Shown: positions 12,431 through 21,966 of the stretch, one piece after another
Layout of the letters: every line of letters starts with the position of its first letter
Numbering within the stretch: the first letter of the stretch is position 1
DNA from: a virus
Taxonomy: Duplodnaviria; Heunggongvirae; Uroviricota; Caudoviricetes
DNA: 21,966 nt
Strand: one strand, 5' to 3'
IMG/VR virus record: IMGVR_UViG_2609460059_000007
Notes under the pieces: generated by a model
Database searches by the model: none
What the model was told of the DNA's origin: nothing
What the model saw: the letters and a program-made list of their open reading frames with translations, nothing else
Position numbers and translations under genes: made by a program

Positions 12431-15400
12431 TTAGAATATATATTTAATACCCAGCATTGCCTGGGCATCACTGTACCCTTTATCGCCAGCCTGAACACCA
12501 ACATTGCCCCAGACATTCAGGTTATCTGACAATTTACCCTGAACACCCGTTTTGACTTCAGCAATATTTGTAGCTCCGTCCTGACTGAGTGCCGTATTAT
12601 CCATTTTGACACCCCAGCTCCGTGTATTATGGATCCAGTTAACTTCCACAAATGGCTCAAACTGATGCGCCTTATTATCATCAGACGCACTCTTACCTTT
12701 CAGGTAAGTTCTGACGCCCAGACGACTCTGGATATTACCGTCTCCGCTGAGCTGAACTTTCGTGCCATTCTTCTCCGTATGCTCACTGGCTCTTACATTC
12801 ATCCACGTGATCTGGGACTGCGGCTGAATATACCAGTCATAGTGACTACCCTGGCTACCGGTAAATTCGCCGGCTTTAAAGGTATAACCCGCTTCCACTG
12901 AACCGGTAAATCCACGGGATTTCCAGGACTCCGCAGCCAGTTTTTCACCATTAACGGTATTATTAAACCATCCGTACTGGATCCAGGTATCGACATAAGC
13001 CCCGTTGTCATTACCGTCATTCTGCTGCCACGTTCCGTATAAACCGGTGCTGTATCCATTGATCGCACCTTTAGATTTATATCCCGAAAGCGAGGATGTC
13101 GTGGAACTCTTCTCATTTCCATAACCGGCCATAATCCCCAGTTGCAGACGGTCCTGACCGTCAGTCCATTGCGCAATGCTGCCACCCAGTTGCACAACAT
13201 AACGGTTACTTTGCGTATTCAGCTGTGAACTGCTGTCCTTCCAGCGATTATGACCGCCGATATGACGCATCCACATACTTGTTGCTTTCTTCTCACCAGT
13301 AAACACATCGGTATAGTAAGTTTCCCCCTCACGATCGTGCATTCTGATGTTGAACAGCGTGTTGGCTGCCGCTATGTTCGCAATATAAGAGCCCGCTTCC
13401 GGACGATAGACCTTCTGTACAGGTTTATCCGGCGTGGGGTGTGGCTGTGGCTGCGGTTGTGGCTGCGGCTGCGGTTGTGGCTGCGGCTGCGGTTGTGGCT
13501 GCGGTTGTGGTTCTGGCGGCAATTCAGAACGCAGATACCAGTTACCGTCAGTACCACCCGCATTACCTTTATGCAGGAAATATTCCCACGCCCCTGCCAC
13601 CGCACGGTTCTGCAGTCTGAAGTTACCGTCAGACTGCCCACCGACATGCACAATCTCAATGCCGTCAGCGGTCTGAGCCCCCTGGCCCCGGACATTATTC
13701 ACCACCACGCCGGTATCACCGGAGGTGTTACCCGTGACAATCAGTTTGTCAGTGGTAGAAGTATCATCCCCCAGCACGGTATTGATAATTAACGTACCGC
13801 CACCGGTGTAATCGCCATTTACGGTCAGGGTATTTCCTGTCTTACCACCGGCCAGACGAATGACGCCGGTATTGGTCAGTGAGCCAACGGTAAAATTGCC
13901 CACCTCTGCCGTTTCATAACCTGAGAGAGCATTCAGTGATGCCAGTGTTCCCTGGTTATTAACCTGACCCGAAACGGTCCCCAGCCCACTCAGTGTGCCG
14001 CCATTAAGAACATGAATGTTTTTGGATCCTGACAACGTCGCGCCAGCGGCACGGGTGACTGAATCATCACCGACAATCAGAACGCCACTCTCAACCGTGG
14101 TATCACCGGTATAAGTCAGCTCATGATTAATGATCAGATTACCCGCCCCCTGTTTCACCAGAGCGCCGGAGCCAGTAATATCATTCTTCAGTAACCAGTT
14201 TCCACTGGCGGTAAGCCAGGTGACACCATCACTGTCAATCAGCCCGGTGCCCAGGTGTTTTTCATCTGAAGCCCGCAGAGCAGCATCTTTCTGCACACGG
14301 AATTCACCGCTGAAATTACTGTTATCCCCGGAAAGCGTCAGATCAGTGGTGTTCAGTATACCCACTGAACCTTCTCCGGAAAGCGATTTACTCAGGTTAC
14401 TGCTGACTCCGCTACCGTCGGCGATATCAATCGCCAGGCGATCATTAAGGCTTTCAAAGCTGATGGAGCCCTGGCTTCCCAGCCCCTGTGCGCCGTTCAT
14501 TTCAACCAGCGCCCCCTGGGTAAGGCTGGCATTACCGGTAAACCCGATATTGGTGCCATGTACCGTCAGATTGCTGCCCGTGACAGCCAGCGTTCCCTCA
14601 CCGGACAGCACGTTGTTTTCAATGATGCCACCATTATCATCCCCCGGCTGACGCTGCGTGCCGCTGACCGTTAGTACACTACCGCTATCAAGCTGAATGT
14701 GCGCTCCCGTTTCTGTCTGCAGTGCACCGACAGTCTGGCTGTATCCGTTTGTTCTGAAGACGGCATTGCTGGCGACGTTCAGATTACCTGTTGCGCCAAG
14801 TACATTATCATTTGCCATCTGTAATGTGCCGCTGCGCACCAGCGTATCCCCGGTGTAGTTATTACCGCCGTTAGACAGTGTGACAACCTGCCCCGCAGCT
14901 TCGATGGCCAGATCCCCTGCCCCCGTTAACTGTGCGCCAAGATCTGTCTGCAGTCCCTGGGCATTCGCTCTCGGTGTCAGCACCAGCGCTTTATCACCGG
15001 TTCCCTGTAAATCCAGCGACTTCAGCCCATAGCCTATGTACAGTCCGTCACCTTTAATACCGTCGGAGCTTCCCAGCAGCTTATAGTCATAATTTCCCTG
15101 AGCTACAACTTCACCGCCCTGAGTGACATCAAACGTCTGACTGTGAGAAATAGCCTGCCCGTTTTCATCCACCAGTTGCAGTTGCCCGCCAGTACCGGTG
15201 ACGGTACCCGCTGCATTCACCAGCGTGACCAGGGTCTGCGCATCATCCTGCTCCAGCAAATTCTTACGGGTATCAACAGCCGGAATATCATTAATCACTT
15301 CATCTGGCATGGTGACCTGAATTGTGCCTTTCCCCCGGATATCCAGCGTACCTGCAGCAGAGGTTTCAATACTGTTGCTGGCAATGGTATCGCCCGGCAT

Positions 15401-18400
15401 AACGGAACCAAAAATCAGCGTTCCGCCATTGAACCCAAGACCGCCAATCTGCTGAACACCGGAGCCAACCGTTGTGATATTCCCGGTTTCAGACATCAGC
15501 ATTGCATGGGTTAACCCGCTCGTATTCAGCCCTTCCAGAGCAAAGCTACTAGTACCCAGCTTCAGAGTTCCGGCAAATTGATCCCCGACGTTATGGCTGA
15601 ATTCAAAAGCAGATGTGTCGGCATCAAGACGGGCAGACAGTGTTCCTTTGCCTGTTAACAGTGGATCAAAGGTAAAGTTGCCTGCAACTGCGGGAATAAT
15701 GGCCAGTTCGCTGCCCGATTCAATATCGACGGAACCCGGACCGTTCCCCCCATCGGTCAGCACAAGAGCTTCCTTCAGAGTGACAAGTGAACTGTTCTTC
15801 AGCCCGACATGTTCGAAATTCTGTAGTTTTACAACAGAATCCAGCGTATGAATGGCGTTATCAAAAATCAGGGAATCAGAATCTCCCTGCCCGCCATCCA
15901 GCAGGTTCCAGGTTGCCCCTTCACCTTTAATGGTGAAGGTGTTCTTCCCGGTACCGGCAGTAACCTGATCAACATGAGTCTTACCATTGAGTGTTACATT
16001 ATTATTGCCATTTCCTGCAGTCACTTCTCCTGTCAGTGTGCTGCCATCATCAAATAAAAATGTATTGTTACCCTCTTTCGCACTGACGGTTCCGGTAATA
16101 CTGCCTTTATTGGTGAATGTGTTATCACCGCCGTTCAGAGCCACAACCCCCTGAATTTCAGCACCGCTGTCATTCAGTACGGTGGTATTCACGGCGTCAT
16201 CAAACGCCATTGCAGTCCCGGTGGTGGACGCAGCTTTAATCTGACCTTTATTGGTAAAGGATTGTGCTTTTGAAGCATCCACTACGGCATGACTCAGAGA
16301 AGCAGAGATGAGATTACCGCTCTGAACCACTTCACTGGCTGCATTGTTAACCACCAGAGCGGAACCGCCATCGGCCTGTATAACATTGACACTTGCACCA
16401 CTCTTCACGACAGCACCATCTTTAGTGTTGGCGAAAATACCCGTGCCGTCCGTACCCTTCAGGTTAATGACCAATCCAGCGGAGTCAGACATATCCAGGT
16501 TATTATCGGTTTCACTTCCGTCAGCTTTCTGGAACGCCAGTGCAATTCCACTGCCGTCTACATTAATAGTGCCGCTGTTGGTCTTGGCCAGGGAGGCAGA
16601 AGTACGTACACCAATGCCATCAGCCACATTAATTTCAGTCGTATTGGTTAACTGAATGCCTTCAATTTCTGCGCGGTTCTCAATCCCGTGACCGACCGCA
16701 CCTGCAGCATTAACATTGATTTTCGCACCATCAATAACCAGCCCCACAGCCCCTGTATCCAGCAGGATGCCATGCGCATTTTTCTGACCTTCGATCGTAC
16801 CCAAGCCACTCCCTGCCAGGTTCAGTGACGCGCCCGCCCCCAGCTTAATGGCAGCCTCACCATCCACAGCGACGATATCCCCTCCTGTGCTGGTAATCTG
16901 AGACTGTGCACCTTCAACAAATAATGCAACGCCATTGACCGCAATACGGCTTCCTGTATTTTCAAAGCGGCCGTTATCAACCCAGACGCCGATATTATCT
17001 GTACCGGTAGTGAAATCAATGTTGCCGTTGTTAATCAACAGTCCCTGATTACGCGTAATAAAGCCCTTGGCATTATTCAGCGGCGAAGAGATATCTGCCT
17101 CATTGGTAATAACCGAGCCAGTATTCGTTTGTGTAATACTGCCATCCAGAGCGTATTCATTTCCGTCAACTTCCGCGACAACAGCGCCATCCCCTACAAG
17201 GTTAACTGATGCCCCCTGTTTCAGCGTCGCTGTCGCACCACCAGTTACATATAATCCCTGAGCCTGAGCGCCCAGGATCTGGAAATCACTGCCAGCATCA
17301 GCCAGGACATTGCTCCCTTTCCCTGTGGCCCAGATACCACGGCTGCCTGTCCCGGAGGTTTTCATCAGCAGAGAGCCGGCCTGTTTTGCCCCATCTTCAA
17401 TACGGAAAAGTACAGAACGTTCCCCACTGGCATCCAGCAGAGTTCCCGGTGCAATATTCGTCTTAATGGTTGCACCATCTCCGATAATACGAAAAGCAAT
17501 CTGATCGGTAATACCAGAGCCGTCAGCAGCAAAGTTCGGTACTGCCGAACCATCAAGGTTAACAGTCCCTTTATTGCTGGCCTCAACGCCAATCGCCCCC
17601 TGTCCCTGCAAAGATATAGTACCCGCGGTCATATTAACCGTTGTTGTTGTACCAGATGCTTTTATACCCGTTGTACGGTTAGCATTATCTCCTCCCTTGA
17701 GAACGAGATTTCCCGAGTTATTAATCGTTGTAACATCTTGTGTGGCATTAGCAATTAGTCCCACACCACCATCCTGAACTGTAATATTTCCGCTGTTGGT
17801 ACCAACAGCCCCCTCCTCAACCCGGACGCCCACTGTATTCTTTCCAGTAAAGATGATATTACCGGTATTATTTAGAGTGGCCCCATTACGGGCGATATAC
17901 CCGGTCACTTTATCCTGGGTGGAACTTAACTGAGCCCCCGCCGTTAATAGTGTGGTCTTGTCCTTCGGATTAATGAGTTTGCCGGAAATATCATAGCCAT
18001 TGCCATCCGCAATACCGGCTATCGCACTGGCATTATCCATATTGATAATGGCATTACTTTCAATTGTGCCCTGCGCTCCCCCTTCAATTAAAGTCGCTGT
18101 AGCCCCCTCACCCGTCAGGTTGATGGTCATTCCTCCAGACGTTACTGTCGAGGCCACACCGCCATCCGATTTCCCCGTGGCAATAAGTGCATAAGAGTTC
18201 TTACCAGACGCCGTAAGTGCAGAAGAAGCATCTGCAGTTCCCTGGAATGTCGCACCACTGGCAATACGGAATAATGTTGAGTTTTCAGTGGACACATCCA
18301 TAACACCGCTTCCGGTATTATGAATGGCAGAGTCCTTTCCATAGACATAAAAGCCTATCTGATCGCTGCTGCCAAATAGCACTGCACCATTGCCTGACAG

Positions 18401-20374
18401 GGTCAGACTGCCGCCATCTTTAGCAAAAACCCCCACAGCCCCCGTACCGGCAAGACTGATTTTTCCGGATACATTAACATTGCTTCCGGCACCTTCCACC
18501 CAGGCACCATAGTTACGGAAACCACTACTGATACCCTTGCCGCCAACATTTATCGTACCGTCAGAATTCAACTGTCCTGCATTGATTACCTGTAGCCCGG
18601 TGCTGTTCAGACCATTAACATTGATAATCCCGGAGTTTTTCATCCCGGAGCTATTATTTGCCAGCATGCCAACATTCAGTGCAGGTGCATCACTGTCATG
18701 ACCGTCAATAGTGATAGTCCCTTTATTTACCACATCAACAGTCCCGGCATCCTTTGCCAGGATTCCGTAGTTCCCCTGAGCCCCCCTGCCCAAAAAAATA
18801 GTACCTTCATTAACGACTTTGTTTGCACCATTTTGTACTTCAATCGCAACAGAACCCACAGCCGAATGAGTCGCAGTTTTATCCTCCGCAATACCTACAT
18901 TGATGCTCCCGAAGGCCGAGTTAATAAAAGAGCCTCCAGCTCCAACATTTACACCTCGTGTTTTGCCATTATTATCATTAGTTGATGCATCGGCAGTAAT
19001 ATTTATTGTGCCTTTATTTGTTGCCATGCCCCCATTACTAACAACAATTGCGGTGTTAATCCCCTCTGGAGCGAAAGCATTTTTAAATGGGCGAATATTA
19101 ATAACACCATTATTAATGGCTGAAGAACCATTACTACCGGCAACCATCCCCTCTGCCTGGAGAGCATATTTATCATTATTATCCCAAACAAAAAGTGTAC
19201 CATCGTTAACAATGGTACTGTCTTGATAGGCAATCATTTCAGTACCAATGGCATCAATGACCCCTTCATTAACACCGGTCCCACCATTAGTTGCAACGAT
19301 CCCTCCTCCATTCCCATAGGCAGGAAGAACTCCAGTTAATTTACCCGTTTTACCTAATATTGCTCGTGCGTTATTGGTTGCATGGAGAACAGCAAGCAGC
19401 CCTACATTTTCTTTGTAAGGAGTTGAGTCTATACGTCCCCCAGCGGTCATATCCACATTGTAATTATGCTTGGTGACAATAAGGGCCTTATTAAATTCAG
19501 CATCATACTGCTTATAAGAAAGCGTTTTGTCCTCTAGTGACTTTATCAAATATTGATTATATTGCTTTAAATCATCAAGAGAGTTAATATGGTGTACTTT
19601 TCCCGCCCAATCAGTAATTGTTCCAGCATATTTCATTGAGTCAATGATTTTTTGAGTAACGCCGCCCCCCTGCATGGTTGCACCAGGCTGAAAATAAAAA
19701 TCATTGACCGAGTTCCATACAACAGAGGAACCTTCTCCATCAGCTACAGCAAGCTGTGTATTTTTAAAAAAATTACCGATTGCTGGTGAACCCACATCCA
19801 AAATAGCTGTACCGCCATTATTGGCTGTTACAAAACGTGTCGCATTGAAAAAATCCGCAGTGCCACTAAAACCAGGAATGGTTTCATTTCCCCCAGTCCC
19901 CGCATCGCGTTGTGAGAAAGAGTCAGTATCAAACACTTGAAGTGTTTGAGAAGCGCCAGTAACCTCATCCTTCACTGTAATGGTTTTTGTTTTTTCTCCG
20001 GTATTGACGTAAATCAATCCGGATAAATTATCTCCAGTGGTGTAGCCATTTAAAATTGCCTGTTCTACAGTCATCCAGATAAGACCTGACCCACCAGACT
20101 GGACGACATTTGGACCAGTGATGTATTCGGTTTTACCACTTACTGTTGCAGCCCCAACACCCGAGTTATTCGTACCCGGACGCCAGTCTGGTGACAATAT
20201 GACATCTGCCATTGCGTTATTGCAATTAATTGCAATAGCGCCCCCCAGAACCATTGCTGATAAAGCAATTCCTAAGCGAGTTGATTTACATTTTTTTCTA
20301 CAACTCGTCAATTCTGAAACAACATCCCATTTTTGGGTTGTATGGTTCCAAATGACTTTATATACTTTATTCAT
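12431..20374 (-). CDS. Giant type Va autotransporter adhesin (2647 aa) with extended signal peptide region, repetitive beta-helical passenger, (PQ)11 linker and C-terminal beta-barrel
   Basis: N-terminus MNKVYKVIWNHTTQKWDVVSEL is an ESPR-type extended signal; passenger is G/T/N/S-rich with recurring autotransporter beta-strand repeats (NNYTGDTLVRSGTLQ, LTYTGDTTVESGVLIVG); C-terminus ends ...LGIKYIF with aromatic terminal residue typical of autotransporter barrels. Resembles the UpaE/HyxA-type locus of ExPEC by architecture only. Confidence 0.9.
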   Translation of the reverse strand: MNKVYKVIWNHTTQKWDVVSELTSCRKKCKSTRLGIALSAMVLGGAIAINCNNAMADVILSPDWRPGTNNSGVGAATVSGKTEYITGPNVVQSGGSGLIWMTVEQAILNGYTTGDNLSGLIYVNTGEKTKTITVKDEVTGASQTLQVFDTDSFSQRDAGTGGNETIPGFSGTADFFNATRFVTANNGGTAILDVGSPAIGNFFKNTQLAVADGEGSSVVWNSVNDFYFQPGATMQGGGVTQKIIDSMKYAGTITDWAGKVHHINSLDDLKQYNQYLIKSLEDKTLSYKQYDAEFNKALIVTKHNYNVDMTAGGRIDSTPYKENVGLLAVLHATNNARAILGKTGKLTGVLPAYGNGGGIVATNGGTGVNEGVIDAIGTEMIAYQDSTIVNDGTLFVWDNNDKYALQAEGMVAGSNGSSAINNGVINIRPFKNAFAPEGINTAIVVSNGGMATNKGTINITADASTNDNNGKTRGVNVGAGGSFINSAFGSINVGIAEDKTATHSAVGSVAIEVQNGANKVVNEGTIFLGRGAQGNYGILAKDAGTVDVVNKGTITIDGHDSDAPALNVGMLANNSSGMKNSGIINVNGLNSTGLQVINAGQLNSDGTINVGGKGISSGFRNYGAWVEGAGSNVNVSGKISLAGTGAVGVFAKDGGSLTLSGNGAVLFGSSDQIGFYVYGKDSAIHNTGSGVMDVSTENSTLFRIASGATFQGTADASSALTASGKNSYALIATGKSDGGVASTVTSGGMTINLTGEGATATLIEGGAQGTIESNAIINMDNASAIAGIADGNGYDISGKLINPKDKTTLLTAGAQLSSTQDKVTGYIARNGATLNNTGNIIFTGKNTVGVRVEEGAVGTNSGNITVQDGGVGLIANATQDVTTINNSGNLVLKGGDNANRTTGIKASGTTTTVNMTAGTISLQGQGAIGVEASNKGTVNLDGSAVPNFAADGSGITDQIAFRIIGDGATIKTNIAPGTLLDASGERSVLFRIEDGAKQAGSLLMKTSGTGSRGIWATGKGSNVLADAGSDFQILGAQAQGLYVTGGATATLKQGASVNLVGDGAVVAEVDGNEYALDGSITQTNTGSVITNEADISSPLNNAKGFITRNQGLLINNGNIDFTTGTDNIGVWVDNGRFENTGSRIAVNGVALFVEGAQSQITSTGGDIVAVDGEAAIKLGAGASLNLAGSGLGTIEGQKNAHGILLDTGAVGLVIDGAKINVNAAGAVGHGIENRAEIEGIQLTNTTEINVADGIGVRTSASLAKTNSGTINVDGSGIALAFQKADGSETDNNLDMSDSAGLVINLKGTDGTGIFANTKDGAVVKSGASVNVIQADGGSALVVNNAASEVVQSGNLISASLSHAVVDASKAQSFTNKGQIKAASTTGTAMAFDDAVNTTVLNDSGAEIQGVVALNGGDNTFTNKGSITGTVSAKEGNNTFLFDDGSTLTGEVTAGNGNNNVTLNGKTHVDQVTAGTGKNTFTIKGEGATWNLLDGGQGDSDSLIFDNAIHTLDSVVKLQNFEHVGLKNSSLVTLKEALVLTDGGNGPGSVDIESGSELAIIPAVAGNFTFDPLLTGKGTLSARLDADTSAFEFSHNVGDQFAGTLKLGTSSFALEGLNTSGLTHAMLMSETGNITTVGSGVQQIGGLGFNGGTLIFGSVMPGDTIASNSIETSAAGTLDIRGKGTIQVTMPDEVINDIPAVDTRKNLLEQDDAQTLVTLVNAAGTVTGTGGQLQLVDENGQAISHSQTFDVTQGGEVVAQGNYDYKLLGSSDGIKGDGLYIGYGLKSLDLQGTGDKALVLTPRANAQGLQTDLGAQLTGAGDLAIEAAGQVVTLSNGGNNYTGDTLVRSGTLQMANDNVLGATGNLNVASNAVFRTNGYSQTVGALQTETGAHIQLDSGSVLTVSGTQRQPGDDNGGIIENNVLSGEGTLAVTGSNLTVHGTNIGFTGNASLTQGALVEMNGAQGLGSQGSISFESLNDRLAIDIADGSGVSSNLSKSLSGEGSVGILNTTDLTLSGDNSNFSGEFRVQKDAALRASDEKHLGTGLIDSDGVTWLTASGNWLLKNDITGSGALVKQGAGNLIINHELTYTGDTTVESGVLIVGDDSVTRAAGATLSGSKNIHVLNGGTLSGLGTVSGQVNNQGTLASLNALSGYETAEVGNFTVGSLTNTGVIRLAGGKTGNTLTVNGDYTGGGTLIINTVLGDDTSTTDKLIVTGNTSGDTGVVVNNVRGQGAQTADGIEIVHVGGQSDGNFRLQNRAVAGAWEYFLHKGNAGGTDGNWYLRSELPPEPQPQPQPQPQPQPQPQPQPQPQPHPTPDKPVQKVYRPEAGSYIANIAAANTLFNIRMHDREGETYYTDVFTGEKKATSMWMRHIGGHNRWKDSSSQLNTQSNRYVVQLGGSIAQWTDGQDRLQLGIMAGYGNEKSSTTSSLSGYKSKGAINGYSTGLYGTWQQNDGNDNGAYVDTWIQYGWFNNTVNGEKLAAESWKSRGFTGSVEAGYTFKAGEFTGSQGSHYDWYIQPQSQITWMNVRASEHTEKNGTKVQLSGDGNIQSRLGVRTYLKGKSASDDNKAHQFEPFVEVNWIHNTRSWGVKMDNTALSQDGATNIAEVKTGVQGKLSDNLNVWGNVGVQAGDKGYSDAQAMLGIKYIF
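13445..13510 (-). repeat. Eleven tandem hexanucleotide units (CTGCGG/TTGTGG/CTGTGG on plus strand) encoding (PQ)11 in the autotransporter linker
   Basis: Read directly: 11 consecutive 6-bp units at 13445-13510; in-frame, so copy-number change would alter linker length without frameshift. Confidence 0.9.
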
Positions 20375-20398: not shown

Positions 20399-21019
20399 TT
20401 ATAATTGAATATTTTCACTAATAAGGGAACACGGAATATTTATAAATTGATGTAAACGTTTTACCCCGAGTTTATCCATAGCTCTACGACGATGCGTCCA
20501 CACAGTCTTACTGGATATACCCAAGGTGTTCGAGATCCATGCAATATCTTTTCCTTCCTTGGTATATATAAAGATACTTTTCTCCCTCGGGGATAATTGT
20601 CGTTCTAAAAAAGAAACTTTATGATTCGCGCGAATATTTTTTTTGCACCTCCAGCCATTGATAAATTTATCTATATAGAAACAAAATTGCTCTGCTGTTA
20701 ATTTCCACGGTATGAAAGGTATGCCTTTATTACTAACTACACCATTATCCCCCCATGCCAGGCACGGAATATTGACAGGCTGGCTTTTTAGCCATTGGTG
20801 AATGAAATACAGTGAGCGTATACAGGTAGTAGAATCATTATCAGGGAATACAGGTAACAACAACGATTGCTCATCCCGAAAGCAAGATGTGCCAAAATCA
20901 CGAATCAGAGAAGAATAGTCGTCCACAGCGATGACTTTCACGTACGAAAAACCCCGCCAACGCATACTCTTAATTGCTTGAATTATAAAAGTATTTTTTG
21001 TAGTCGTAATCAAAACCAT
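20399..21019 (-). CDS. LuxR/GerE-family helix-turn-helix transcriptional regulator
   Basis: 206-aa ORF; C-terminal LSPREKSIFIYTKEGKDIAWISNTLGISSKTVWTHRRRAMDKLGV is a LuxR-type HTH; sits 24 bp upstream of the autotransporter start, so likely co-transcribed. Position and type resemble ipuR/hyxR (from memory). Confidence 0.8.
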   Translation of the reverse strand: MVLITTTKNTFIIQAIKSMRWRGFSYVKVIAVDDYSSLIRDFGTSCFRDEQSLLLPVFPDNDSTTCIRSLYFIHQWLKSQPVNIPCLAWGDNGVVSNKGIPFIPWKLTAEQFCFYIDKFINGWRCKKNIRANHKVSFLERQLSPREKSIFIYTKEGKDIAWISNTLGISSKTVWTHRRRAMDKLGVKRLHQFINIPCSLISENIQL

Positions 21020-21112
21020 GCAATCAATTTCCTGTTATCCCCTTTCCCAATTTCCTTTTGCTTTGCACACCGGGGGGAGACAAACCTTGAGGCACAGGTT
21101 TACAAAATGACC

Positions 21113-21387
21113 CATTTTGACAACATCAATTTAATTAACTACAAATAGCACAAAACGCAGGTAAAAAACCTGCGTATTTATTTTAATTCAGAATATAATT
21201 TTGATTGTTATTTACATTTTGGCTTTATACGCCAGAGATTAAAAAGAAGACAAACCTACCTCTTTATGTGTAGATTGACGCCGCACATTGATCTAAATCA
21301 GTAAATTTAATGTTTTTTATAGAAAAAAATGTTTTTCTATACGAGAATTTCTAAACAAAGATTGGGTTTACATTTTGGGTCAAAATG
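21113..21387. promoter_or_regulatory. Candidate invertible phase-variation switch flanked by 9-bp inverted repeats CATTTTGAC / GTCAAAATG
   Basis: CATTTTGAC at 21113-21121 and its reverse complement GTCAAAATG at 21379-21387, 257 bp apart; both embedded in local palindromes (CAAAATG-ACC-CATTTTG and CATTTTG-GGT-CAAAATG) each preceded by GGTTTAC; right repeat lies inside the last 14 codons of the recombinase gene. Confidence 0.45.
21155..21182. terminator. Hairpin with flanking T/A runs inside the putative switch (possible bidirectional terminator)
   Basis: Stem ACGCAGGT (21155-21162) / ACCTGCGT (21167-21174), 4-nt A loop, followed by ATTTATTTT on the plus strand and preceded by an A-rich run (T-rich on the minus strand). 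Confidence 0.5.
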
Positions 21388-21966
21388 TTGCTTTTTTGCG
21401 TCACCTATCCCCCACATTTTTTCAAATCTCATTGAATTAGAAGCAGTATAAATTACCGTATGCCTGATATTACGATGCCCGAGATAGTCCTGAATAAGAC
21501 GGGTATCCACACCATTATCTGCTAGTGAATAACCACATGCATGGCGTAACATATGTGGATGAACTTTAATATTTAAACCTGCATTTTTACCCGCAGCAGA
21601 AACTATGTTATAAAATCGTTGTCTCGATAATGGTTTTCCTGTTCGGGAAACAAATAACCACGGGTTATCATTGAAATGTTTAACATTTAATGAATTCCTT
21701 TCATTCAGCCAGTTTGTTATTGCAATCACCTCTTCCTTTTGAAGTGGATGGACTGTACTGAATCCATTTTTTATCCGTTGAATATATATTTTTTCTGTAG
21801 TTAGTTCTAAATCCGACAACTGCAGAGATAAGAGCTCACTAACACGCAGACCATGAAAATAAGCCAATAAAATCATGCAAACATCGCGTGAAGAGCAACT
21901 CTTTTGTTTTACAGATTGAAGTAGTAAATTAATTTCATGATGCGTTAAAAATTTTCTGTTTTGCAT
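21337..21966 (-). CDS. FimB/FimE-family tyrosine recombinase (DNA invertase)
   Basis: 209-aa ORF; FLTHHEINLLL...HGLRVSEL...HPHMLRHACGYSLADNGVDTRLIQDYLGHRNIRHTVIYT closely parallels FimB as I recall it; start codon is the last three bases of the window (reverse complement). Resembles orphan fim-like recombinases IpuA/FimX. Confidence 0.85.
   Translation of the reverse strand: MQNRKFLTHHEINLLLQSVKQKSCSSRDVCMILLAYFHGLRVSELLSLQLSDLELTTEKIYIQRIKNGFSTVHPLQKEEVIAITNWLNERNSLNVKHFNDNPWLFVSRTGKPLSRQRFYNIVSAAGKNAGLNIKVHPHMLRHACGYSLADNGVDTRLIQDYLGHRNIRHTVIYTASNSMRFEKMWGIGDAKKQHFDPKCKPNLCLEILV

Follow-up and report, generated by a model that had tools for sequence, protein, structure and literature searches.

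The ipuS promoter switch of Escherichia coli and its 7-bp core sites, present in the OFF orientation

The invertible element between the recombinase gene ipuA and the regulator gene ipuR is almost certainly ipuS, the third Fim-type promoter-inversion switch of extraintestinal pathogenic E. coli, lying here in the OFF orientation. The window, meaning the whole stretch of DNA that was analyzed, is 21,966 nt long, and its ipuR-ipuS-ipuA region (20399-21966) was used for comparison with other genomes. From ipuR to the ipuA start codon, 0 of 1,567 positions were mismatched relative to E. coli CFT073 (NC_004431.1), and by this sequence identity with the CFT073 ipuR-ipuS-ipuA region, the locus is the already published ipuS switch. 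The first-pass annotation, made from the letters alone, had guessed at an ipuA-ipuR switch, and the guess was correct. Nothing in the switch itself is new, and its functional reading is already in the literature.

Identity of the locus and the published switch

The recombinase gene and the two genes of the switched operon are as follows.

21337-21966, minus strand: ipuA, tyrosine-type DNA invertase (RefSeq and Pfam), 209 residues at full length, which is the OFF-state form
20399-21019, minus strand: ipuR, LuxR-type regulator, 206 residues, gene 1 of the switched operon (Pfam GerE, 4.8e-12)
12431-20374, minus strand: upaE, phase-variable autotransporter adhesin, 2,647 residues, gene 2 of the switched operon

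A megablast search with the comparison region found the locus in 237 complete E. coli genomes out of 5,426, each time as a single chromosomal copy, with matches at least 99% identical in 232 of the 237 and a 100% match to 20399-21966 in Nissle 1917. The RefSeq annotation at the locus reads 'ipuA: tyrosine-type DNA invertase IpuA' beside a helix-turn-helix/LuxR regulator, and the next gene carries the product name 'phase-variable autotransporter adhesin UpaE'. In IpuA, the Pfam Phage_integrase domain (7.8e-50) covers residues 5-178, and the catalytic residues assigned by motif are R41, H138, R141, and Y173, the R-H-R-Y set of the FimB/FimE family. The tail that is swapped on inversion begins at residue 198, beyond the Pfam domain and 25 residues past Y173. 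UpaE contains the Pfam domains ESPR, PATR, AC_1, and Autotransporter beta-domain, and its 2,647-residue reading frame is intact in the window, whereas in CFT073 it is frameshifted according to RefSeq. An Rfam search across the whole window found no RNA family.

The ipuS switch was described in CFT073 by Battaglioli et al. (2018, mBio; PMC6083910), who Sanger sequenced both orientations of an element of ~260 bp within the 317-bp ipuA-ipuR spacer, bounded by 7-bp inverted repeats, of which the distal one in that description lies inside ipuA. The OFF orientation yields full-length IpuA, while in the ON orientation 11 C-terminal residues are lost and the new terminal residue is changed, and the truncated enzyme remains active (PMC6083910). 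A 5′ RACE product was obtained from the locked-ON strain only, with its start within the ipuA-coding part of ipuS, and the putative sigma-70 promoter of the element has 4/6 matches per hexamer (PMC6083910). Inversion by IpuA, in both full-length and truncated forms, and by IpuB, FimE, and FimX was reported in the same paper, as were increased adherence and kidney colonisation and decreased motility with ipuS ON (PMC6083910). According to PMC6458436, FimB also inverts ipuS, weakly, and overexpression of IpuB induces ipuR ~1,600-fold and upaE 33-fold; the same paper reports re-sequencing of the ipuS breakpoints by a second laboratory, which confirmed the 7-nt repeats.

The element in the window and ipuS of CFT073 are the same, with the 317-bp spacer (exactly the published length), the 7-bp repeats, the placement of one of them inside ipuA, the 11-residue truncation, and the geometry of the PacI site all reproduced. 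The length between the cores was counted here as 261 bp, compared to the '260 bp' of PMC6083910, and is 260 in one metagenome allele. For the changed terminal residue, the main text of PMC6083910 gives K-to-L and the legend of its Fig. 1C gives K-to-F; translation of the inversion at the 7-bp cores gives K-to-F, not K-to-L. The first-pass annotation had proposed that the segment between the FimB/FimE-family recombinase and the LuxR regulator inverts and thereby gates the regulator and the co-transcribed autotransporter. Both proposals agree with the literature, as inversion is published for the identical sequence (PMC6083910) and the promoter drives ipuR-upaE in one orientation (PMC6083910 and PMC6458436). 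Its view that inversion alters the C-terminus of the recombinase likewise stands, a change in the IpuA tail having been published (PMC6083910).

Recombination sites and the crossover pairing

The following features define the element, its boundaries, and the repeats considered.

21108-21382: ipuS invertible element with both cores, 275 bp, 261 bp between cores, OFF in the window
21108-21114, plus strand: distal (ipuR-side) core TGACCCA, the likely strand-exchange region, exact in E. whittamii
21376-21382, plus strand: proximal core TGGGTCA, inside ipuA at codons D196-P197, predicting an inverted IpuA of 198 residues ending ...DPF*
21097-21126: left recombination site, consisting of outer arm GGTTTACAAAA, core, and inner arm TTTTGACAACA
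21365-21391: right recombination site, consisting of inner arm GGTTTACATTT, core, and outer arm AAATGTTGC
21131-21138: PacI site TTAATTAA, the off-centre marker of the published orientation assay
21113-21121, plus strand: 9-mer CATTTTGAC, spanning the final 2 nt of the left core followed by the left inner arm
21379-21387, plus strand: 9-mer GTCAAAATG, spanning the final 4 nt of the right core followed by the right outer arm

Read from its sequence, each boundary consists of a 7-bp asymmetric core with a short inverted arm on either side, which is a tyrosine-recombinase site. The core sites of tyrosine recombinases generally have this layout, with overlap regions of 6-8 bp. The arms of the left site are complementary at 6/8 positions. 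Searching the window for the composite layout, defined after the sites had been seen as 6-nt arms at least 5/6 complementary around reverse-complementary 7-nt cores lying 150-520 nt apart, returned one instance, exactly at ipuS, whereas shuffled windows averaged 0.01 instances and 701-nt AT-rich simulations averaged 0.0008. Neither site varies among six divergent E. coli alleles or among 21 metagenome contigs, and the SNPs are concentrated inside the element, at 21142, 21185, 21189, 21207, 21235, 21281, and 21283.

The exact 9-bp inverted pair to which the first-pass annotation had drawn attention, CATTTTGAC and GTCAAAATG with 257 nt between them, is present, and its right copy does lie inside the recombinase gene on the minus strand. 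As the crossover repeat, it did not hold up: the true cores are 7 bp long, are offset by 5 bp from the 9-mers, and share just 2 nt (left) and 4 nt (right) with them. The 9-bp pair is also not beyond chance expectation. In first-order shuffles of 20900-21600, scored for exact inverted pairs 100-600 nt apart, 72% held at least one such pair (mean 1.9), and the whole window contains 90 exact 9-mer inverted-pair matches. The longest inverted repeat at this locus is not the functional one, a caution for switch finders that are based on repeats.

Each boundary is locally palindromic, reading CAAAATG-ACC-CATTTTG on the left and CATTTTG-GGT-CAAAATG on the right, and for this reason three inverted pairings are possible.

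21113-21121 with 21379-21387: the 9-mers of the first-pass annotation, predicting an inverted IpuA of 204 residues ending ...HFDNINLINYK
21103-21109 with 21371-21377: CAAAATG with CATTTTG, predicting an inverted IpuA of 198 residues ending ...DPK
21108-21114 with 21376-21382: TGACCCA with TGGGTCA, predicting an inverted IpuA of 198 residues ending ...DPF

Four independent lines of evidence (the published truncation, the PacI shift, protein look-ups, and the E. whittamii homologue) select the third of these, the pairing of the 7-bp cores, as the crossover. Within E. coli, all three pairings fall in the same invariant blocks, so conservation there does not distinguish them; only the PacI arithmetic, the look-ups of proteins, and E. 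whittamii do. The predicted ON junctions differ, being TTTACAAAATGACCCAAAATGTAAACCC for the cores, ACCCATTTTGACCCAAAATGT for the 9-mers, and TTTACAAAATGTAAACCC for CAAAATG/CATTTTG. Specifically, the cores predict GGTTTACAAAATGACCCAAAATGTAAACCC at the ipuR side and GTTGTCAAAATGGGTCAAAATGTTGC at the ipuA side, the 9-mers predict GACCCATTTTGACCCAAAATGT at the ipuR side, and CAAAATG/CATTTTG predicts GACCCAAAATGA then CCCATTTTGAC on the ipuA sense strand. A metagenome scan for the ON left junctions of all three pairings, combined in one gapped pattern, gave 0 matches and was non-discriminating.

When each inversion was simulated, only the core pairing produced an 11-residue truncation with a changed last residue (209 to 198 residues, K198F). 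The proximal core occupies ipuA codons 196-197, and inversion therefore replaces K198-V209 with F and a stop. This differs from the claim of the first-pass annotation that the last 14 codons are rewritten, as a single F and a stop would follow instead (...HFDPF, 198 residues). Recombination at the 9-mers, which would invert 21122-21378, is predicted to give IpuA a new 8-residue tail and a net shortening of 5 residues (204 residues in total), at odds with the 11-residue truncation that was published (PMC6083910). The CAAAATG/CATTTTG pairing, which would invert 21110-21370, is likewise an exact 7-bp inverted repeat with 261 nt between its copies and likewise removes 11 residues, but it leaves the terminal residue unchanged, whereas a change is reported in PMC6083910.

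The published PacI assay separates the two orientations by the primer-proximal fragment, 186 bp in the OFF and 407 bp in the ON state, a shift of 221 bp (PMC6083910). Digestion in silico after inversion at the cores moved this fragment from 188 to 409 bp, a shift equal to the published one, and the constant 2-nt offset from the published sizes corresponds to the staggered PacI cut. The ON fragment was 419 bp (shift 231 bp) for the 9-mers and 399 bp (shift 211 bp) for CAAAATG/CATTTTG, so both of these pairings are contradicted by the digest sizes. Only the PacI-proximal fragment was used in this comparison, as the published amplicon of 1,289 bp compares to 2,928 bp on the wild-type locus, a size gap attributed to the published measurement having been made in recombinase-deletion strains.

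Exact sequences of the predicted proteins were then looked up among ~15 billion proteins, for the window allele and for a second common allele (WGRGD). Full-length IpuA of the window allele was found on at least 1,000 contigs. The complete form ending ...DPF was found on three contigs for the window allele (HBI7608244.1; longest contig 160,885 bp) and on three for the WGRGD allele (HDW7376719.1; longest contig 37,020 bp). The tail predicted by the 9-mers was absent from the ~15 billion proteins for both alleles. Proteins ending ...DPK are present in the collection, which would favor CAAAATG/CATTTTG, but all such entries, in both alleles, are labelled 'partial' by their source, and none of those from the window allele is on a contig longer than 939 bp; these entries fit assemblies that broke at the switch better than a genuine stop codon. 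Given these partial entries, the unchanged last residue, and the 10-bp discrepancy in the digest, crossover at CAAAATG/CATTTTG appears highly improbable. IpuA can end ...DPF* only where the distal inner arm has become attached to the proximal core, which indirectly indicates that both orientations occur. The ON junction is thus supported here at the protein level, and its direct proof is in the literature (PMC6083910 and PMC6458436).

The closest relative outside E. coli is the recombinase of Escherichia whittamii Sa2BVA5, with 64% identity. Its locus carries an exact TGACCCA/TGGGTCA pair at a spacing of 262 nt, with one core in the 3′ end of the recombinase gene, while the equivalent of the 9-mer is mismatched (CTTTTTGAC compared to CATTTTGAC). 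Aligned on the core, the E. coli half-sites read aacattt-TGACCCA-aaatgtaaac (proximal) and tttacaaaa-TGACCCA-ttttgacaac (distal), and those of E. whittamii read aactttt-TGACCCA-aactgtaaac and tgtcaaaa-TGACCCA-ttttgacaac. The expectation of the first-pass annotation that its repeats would be conserved in homologous loci is therefore borne out for the sites within E. coli and for the 7-bp core and its spacing, which are kept in E. whittamii, and not for the 9-mer, which is inexact in E. whittamii. No exact inverted repeat on either side of the spacer is longer than the 9-mers, which are also unchanged across E. coli alleles. Set against this are their chance frequency in this DNA, the 7-bp rather than 9-bp repeats reported in PMC6083910 and in PMC6458436, and the mismatch just described, together with the look-ups, in which the product of the core pairing is present and the 204-residue product is not; we consider crossover at the 9-mers very unlikely.

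Orientation, terminator, and promoter

The sizes of the PacI fragments in the window match the published OFF state, which is therefore the state of the window. A synthetic ON query aligned in pieces to all 237 carrier genomes, with exactly the 275-nt element on the opposite strand, and the ON orientation was found in one piece in none of the 5,426 complete E. coli genomes (237/237 carriers OFF). Among 21 metagenome contigs detected with an orientation-neutral pattern, none was ON (21/21 OFF), bringing the total at the DNA level to 258/258 assembled copies in the OFF orientation. At the protein level, ON-state IpuA products occur on 6 contigs, compared to at least 2,000 contigs with full-length forms. 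The switch is overwhelmingly OFF in assembled consensus sequences.

This uniformity could also be read as the absence of an active switch in this strain, with the repeats being chance or relic sequences and the spacer a static intergenic region with a terminator. In keeping with such a reading, short inverted repeats are statistically unexceptional here, a single orientation was seen in all 258 copies, and no consensus promoter was found. However, the sequence is identical to that of a strain in which two laboratories have shown inversion (PMC6083910 and PMC6458436), ON-state IpuA products occur naturally for two alleles, and the composite layout of the sites is rare by chance and is kept in the homologue with 64% identity. 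A switch that is mostly OFF in culture is also expected to show one consensus orientation throughout. We therefore give the static reading practically no chance of being correct and treat the element as the active ipuS switch, the interior of which contains the following features.

21155-21175: two-way intrinsic terminator hairpin, its 8-bp stem containing 5 G-C pairs and each strand carrying a T-run
21316-21348, plus strand: candidate sigma-70 promoter region, which in the OFF orientation would face away from ipuR and read antisense to ipuA
21316-21321 and 21338-21343, plus strand: first promoter option, TTTATA, 16-nt spacer, TATACG, 4/6 per hexamer
21320-21325 and 21343-21348, plus strand: second promoter option, TAGAAA, 17-nt spacer, GAGAAT, 4/6 per hexamer

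A hairpin terminator within the segment had been noted in the first-pass annotation and was confirmed as the two-way hairpin at 21155-21175. The terminator scan found 2 sites compared to 0.2 expected, and the folding of the hairpin gave z = -4.5 and -4.1. An AT hairpin at 21318-21341 was rejected as a terminator, being weak (-6.7 to -8.8 kcal/mol) and having no T-run on the ipuA sense strand. A scan of 20950-21500 for the sigma-70 consensus at default stringency returned no site. The two options listed are the sole plus-strand candidates that match 4/6 positions of each hexamer and would start within the part of the element that codes for IpuA, and their predicted start, at ~21350-21355, falls where the published 5′ RACE requires it (PMC6083910). 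Placement of the promoter rests on that published result (PMC6083910), as the sequence candidates are weak.

In the mechanism that these features suggest, the opposed sites undergo strand exchange by IpuA, IpuB, FimE, FimX, and, weakly, FimB, as published work shows, and the 261 bp separating the cores are inverted. By analogy with tyrosine recombinases generally, exchange would take place within the 7-bp core, with the recombinase contacts on the arms. In the OFF orientation, the weak sigma-70-type promoter at the ipuA end would face away from ipuR, and the hairpin between ipuA and ipuR would stop read-through from ipuA. In the ON orientation, the geometry predicts a promoter start ~115-120 nt upstream of the ipuR ATG at 21019, from which ipuR-upaE would be driven, and a hairpin shifted to 21315-21335, just downstream of the shortened ipuA. 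The hairpin should in this way insulate ipuR from ipuA read-through in both orientations.

The tail swap in IpuA is probably incidental to function, since the tails are unrelated between species and lie outside the Pfam domain, and since the truncated enzyme works (PMC6083910). The F-stop outcome is the same in E. whittamii as in E. coli, since the conserved arm TTTTGA encodes it. A further reading, which we put forward tentatively and think unlikely on balance, is that in the OFF orientation the ipuS promoter, by its geometry, would fire on the plus strand into ipuA, antisense to the gene, such that the switch might feed back on the expression of its own recombinase; with the ...DPF* tail swap of both species, this would amount to an orientational control comparable to that of fimE/fimS. 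The word antisense is absent from PMC6083910, and the passages of PMC6458436 that were consulted make no mention of such transcription. If true, OFF-state antisense transcription would be the sole reading beyond the literature that the data allow.

Comparison with other invertible switches

The fimS element of E. coli type 1 fimbriae, inverted by FimB and FimE, belongs with the same recombinase family as ipuS and shares enzymes with it, according to PMC6458436. As in ipuS, its promoter lies inside an element of ~300 bp between short inverted repeats. The flanks are also alike, with GTCAAAA-TGGCCCCA-AATGTT on the fimA side of fimS compared to GTCAAAA-TGGGTCA-AAATGTT at the predicted right junction of ipuS in the ON orientation, and this likeness in sequence fits the published sharing of recombinases. 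The two differ in that fimS has 9-bp repeats (TTGGGGCCA) and is 314 bp long with both repeats, whereas ipuS has 7-bp cores and is 275 bp long; in that no fimS repeat falls within a recombinase coding sequence, whereas one of the ipuS repeats is inside ipuA; and in that fimS drives fimbrial genes, whereas ipuS drives a regulator and an autotransporter. The hyxS element, compared here by its published description, resembles ipuS as a pathogenicity-island switch in which a Fim-type recombinase lies beside an invertible promoter controlling the LuxR-type gene hyxR (as cited in PMC6083910). Unlike ipuS, it has 16-bp repeats and is inverted by FimX only, as given in PMC6083910 and PMC6458436.

The E. 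whittamii locus resembles that of E. coli in its gene content as well as its cores, with a second recombinase upstream and a GerE/LuxR gene downstream, and translation of its predicted inverted form would also end ...DPF*. It differs in having an extra CaiF/GrlA-like gene before the LuxR gene and an AraC-type gene between the recombinases, in a distal site that is a 41-bp near-perfect palindrome, and in a swapped tail of 21 residues that is unrelated to the E. coli tail (KCKPNLCLEILV compared to NCKLPVLRLQMLKNTGYANNN). As already published, fimS, hyxS, and ipuS form three linked phase switches with five shared recombinases, which jointly control how uropathogenic E. coli expresses adhesins, moves, and colonises the kidney. 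To this picture, the present analysis adds the exact coordinates of the cores and arms, the OFF orientation of 258/258 assembled copies, and the recurrence of the core, its spacing, and the predicted ...DPF* ending in E. whittamii.

Short repeats within and beside ipuS

Two short repeats were found in and next to ipuS, the invertible promoter switch between the recombinase gene ipuA and the LuxR-type gene ipuR, at the following window positions.

21097-21104, direct repeat GGTTTACA, outer flank of the left recombination site
21365-21372, direct repeat GGTTTACA, inner flank of the right recombination site
21318-21341, AT-only inverted repeat TATAGAAAAA/TTTTTCTATA, perfect over 10 bp, around a 4-nt loop

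The direct repeat contains TTTACA, which matches the -35 consensus at five of six positions, and, judging from the arrangement of its two copies, the left core would after inversion be flanked by them as a perfect palindrome of 8 nt. The AT-only inverted repeat overlaps the ipuA stop codon as well as both promoter candidates. Its hairpin is weak (-6.7 to -8.8 kcal/mol), and no T-run accompanies it on the ipuA sense strand.

Variant C-termini of IpuA

A 195-aa IpuA variant (P0006, WP_137485159.1) ends in ...KKQHF* and is a non-partial protein found on four contigs, the longest of 263 kb.

About 21379-21387, 3′ end of ipuA, position of the variant end of P0006

This end is accounted for by none of the three inversion models, which correspond to the three possible repeat pairings. 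If the T-run of CATTTTGAC were one T longer, the reading frame would become CAT TTT TGA and give the P0006 end; the change would then be a frameshift inside the recombinase-binding arm itself. For the truncated IpuA, the paper describing ipuS in CFT073 is internally inconsistent on the terminal substitution, given as K-to-L in the main text and as K-to-F in the legend of Fig. 1C (PMC6083910). The terminal residue is F, both in the translated inverted sequence and in the natural proteins P0002 and P0017, one from each of two alleles.

Integrity of upaE and the divergent SCU-124 locus

In the window, upaE is an intact open-reading frame of 2,647 aa, whereas RefSeq labels the gene as "frameshifted" in CFT073 (locus tag C_RS30530) and SCU-124.

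12431-20374, upaE, intact
Around 12931-13504, clustered copies of the 9-mer CCGCAGCCA and its reverse complement

The reading frame also holds a (PQ) repeat run, PQPQ...PQPH, and this run together with the clustered 9-mer copies suggests that upaE may vary in length by slippage. The most divergent hit, at 97.3%, was E. coli SCU-124 (L002, NZ_CP051706.1), which carries many 1-3-nt indels, several of them at homopolymer runs, with ipuA and upaE frameshifted and ipuR shortened; these differences have the appearance of assembly artefacts, not of real variation.

An interrupted ipuS and the homologous locus of E. whittamii

In E. coli TUM1586 (L003, NZ_CP135712.1), ipuS is interrupted by a 711-nt IS200C element with an annotated tnpA.

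Window 21174, IS200C insertion in TUM1586, within the terminator hairpin (21155-21175)
L029 3104-3144, distal-site palindrome of the homologous locus in Escherichia whittamii Sa2BVA5

Despite the insertion, both recombination sites are intact in TUM1586, where the invertible segment would become larger and the terminator hairpin is probably disrupted. At the E. whittamii locus, the LuxR gene is preceded by a CaiF/GrlA-like gene, and the two recombinases have an AraC-type gene between them. The distal site of this putative switch is a 41-bp palindrome, ATCTGTTGTTGTCAAAATG-GGT-CATTTTGACAACAACAGAT, with perfect 19-nt arms, and is far longer than that of E. coli ipuS.
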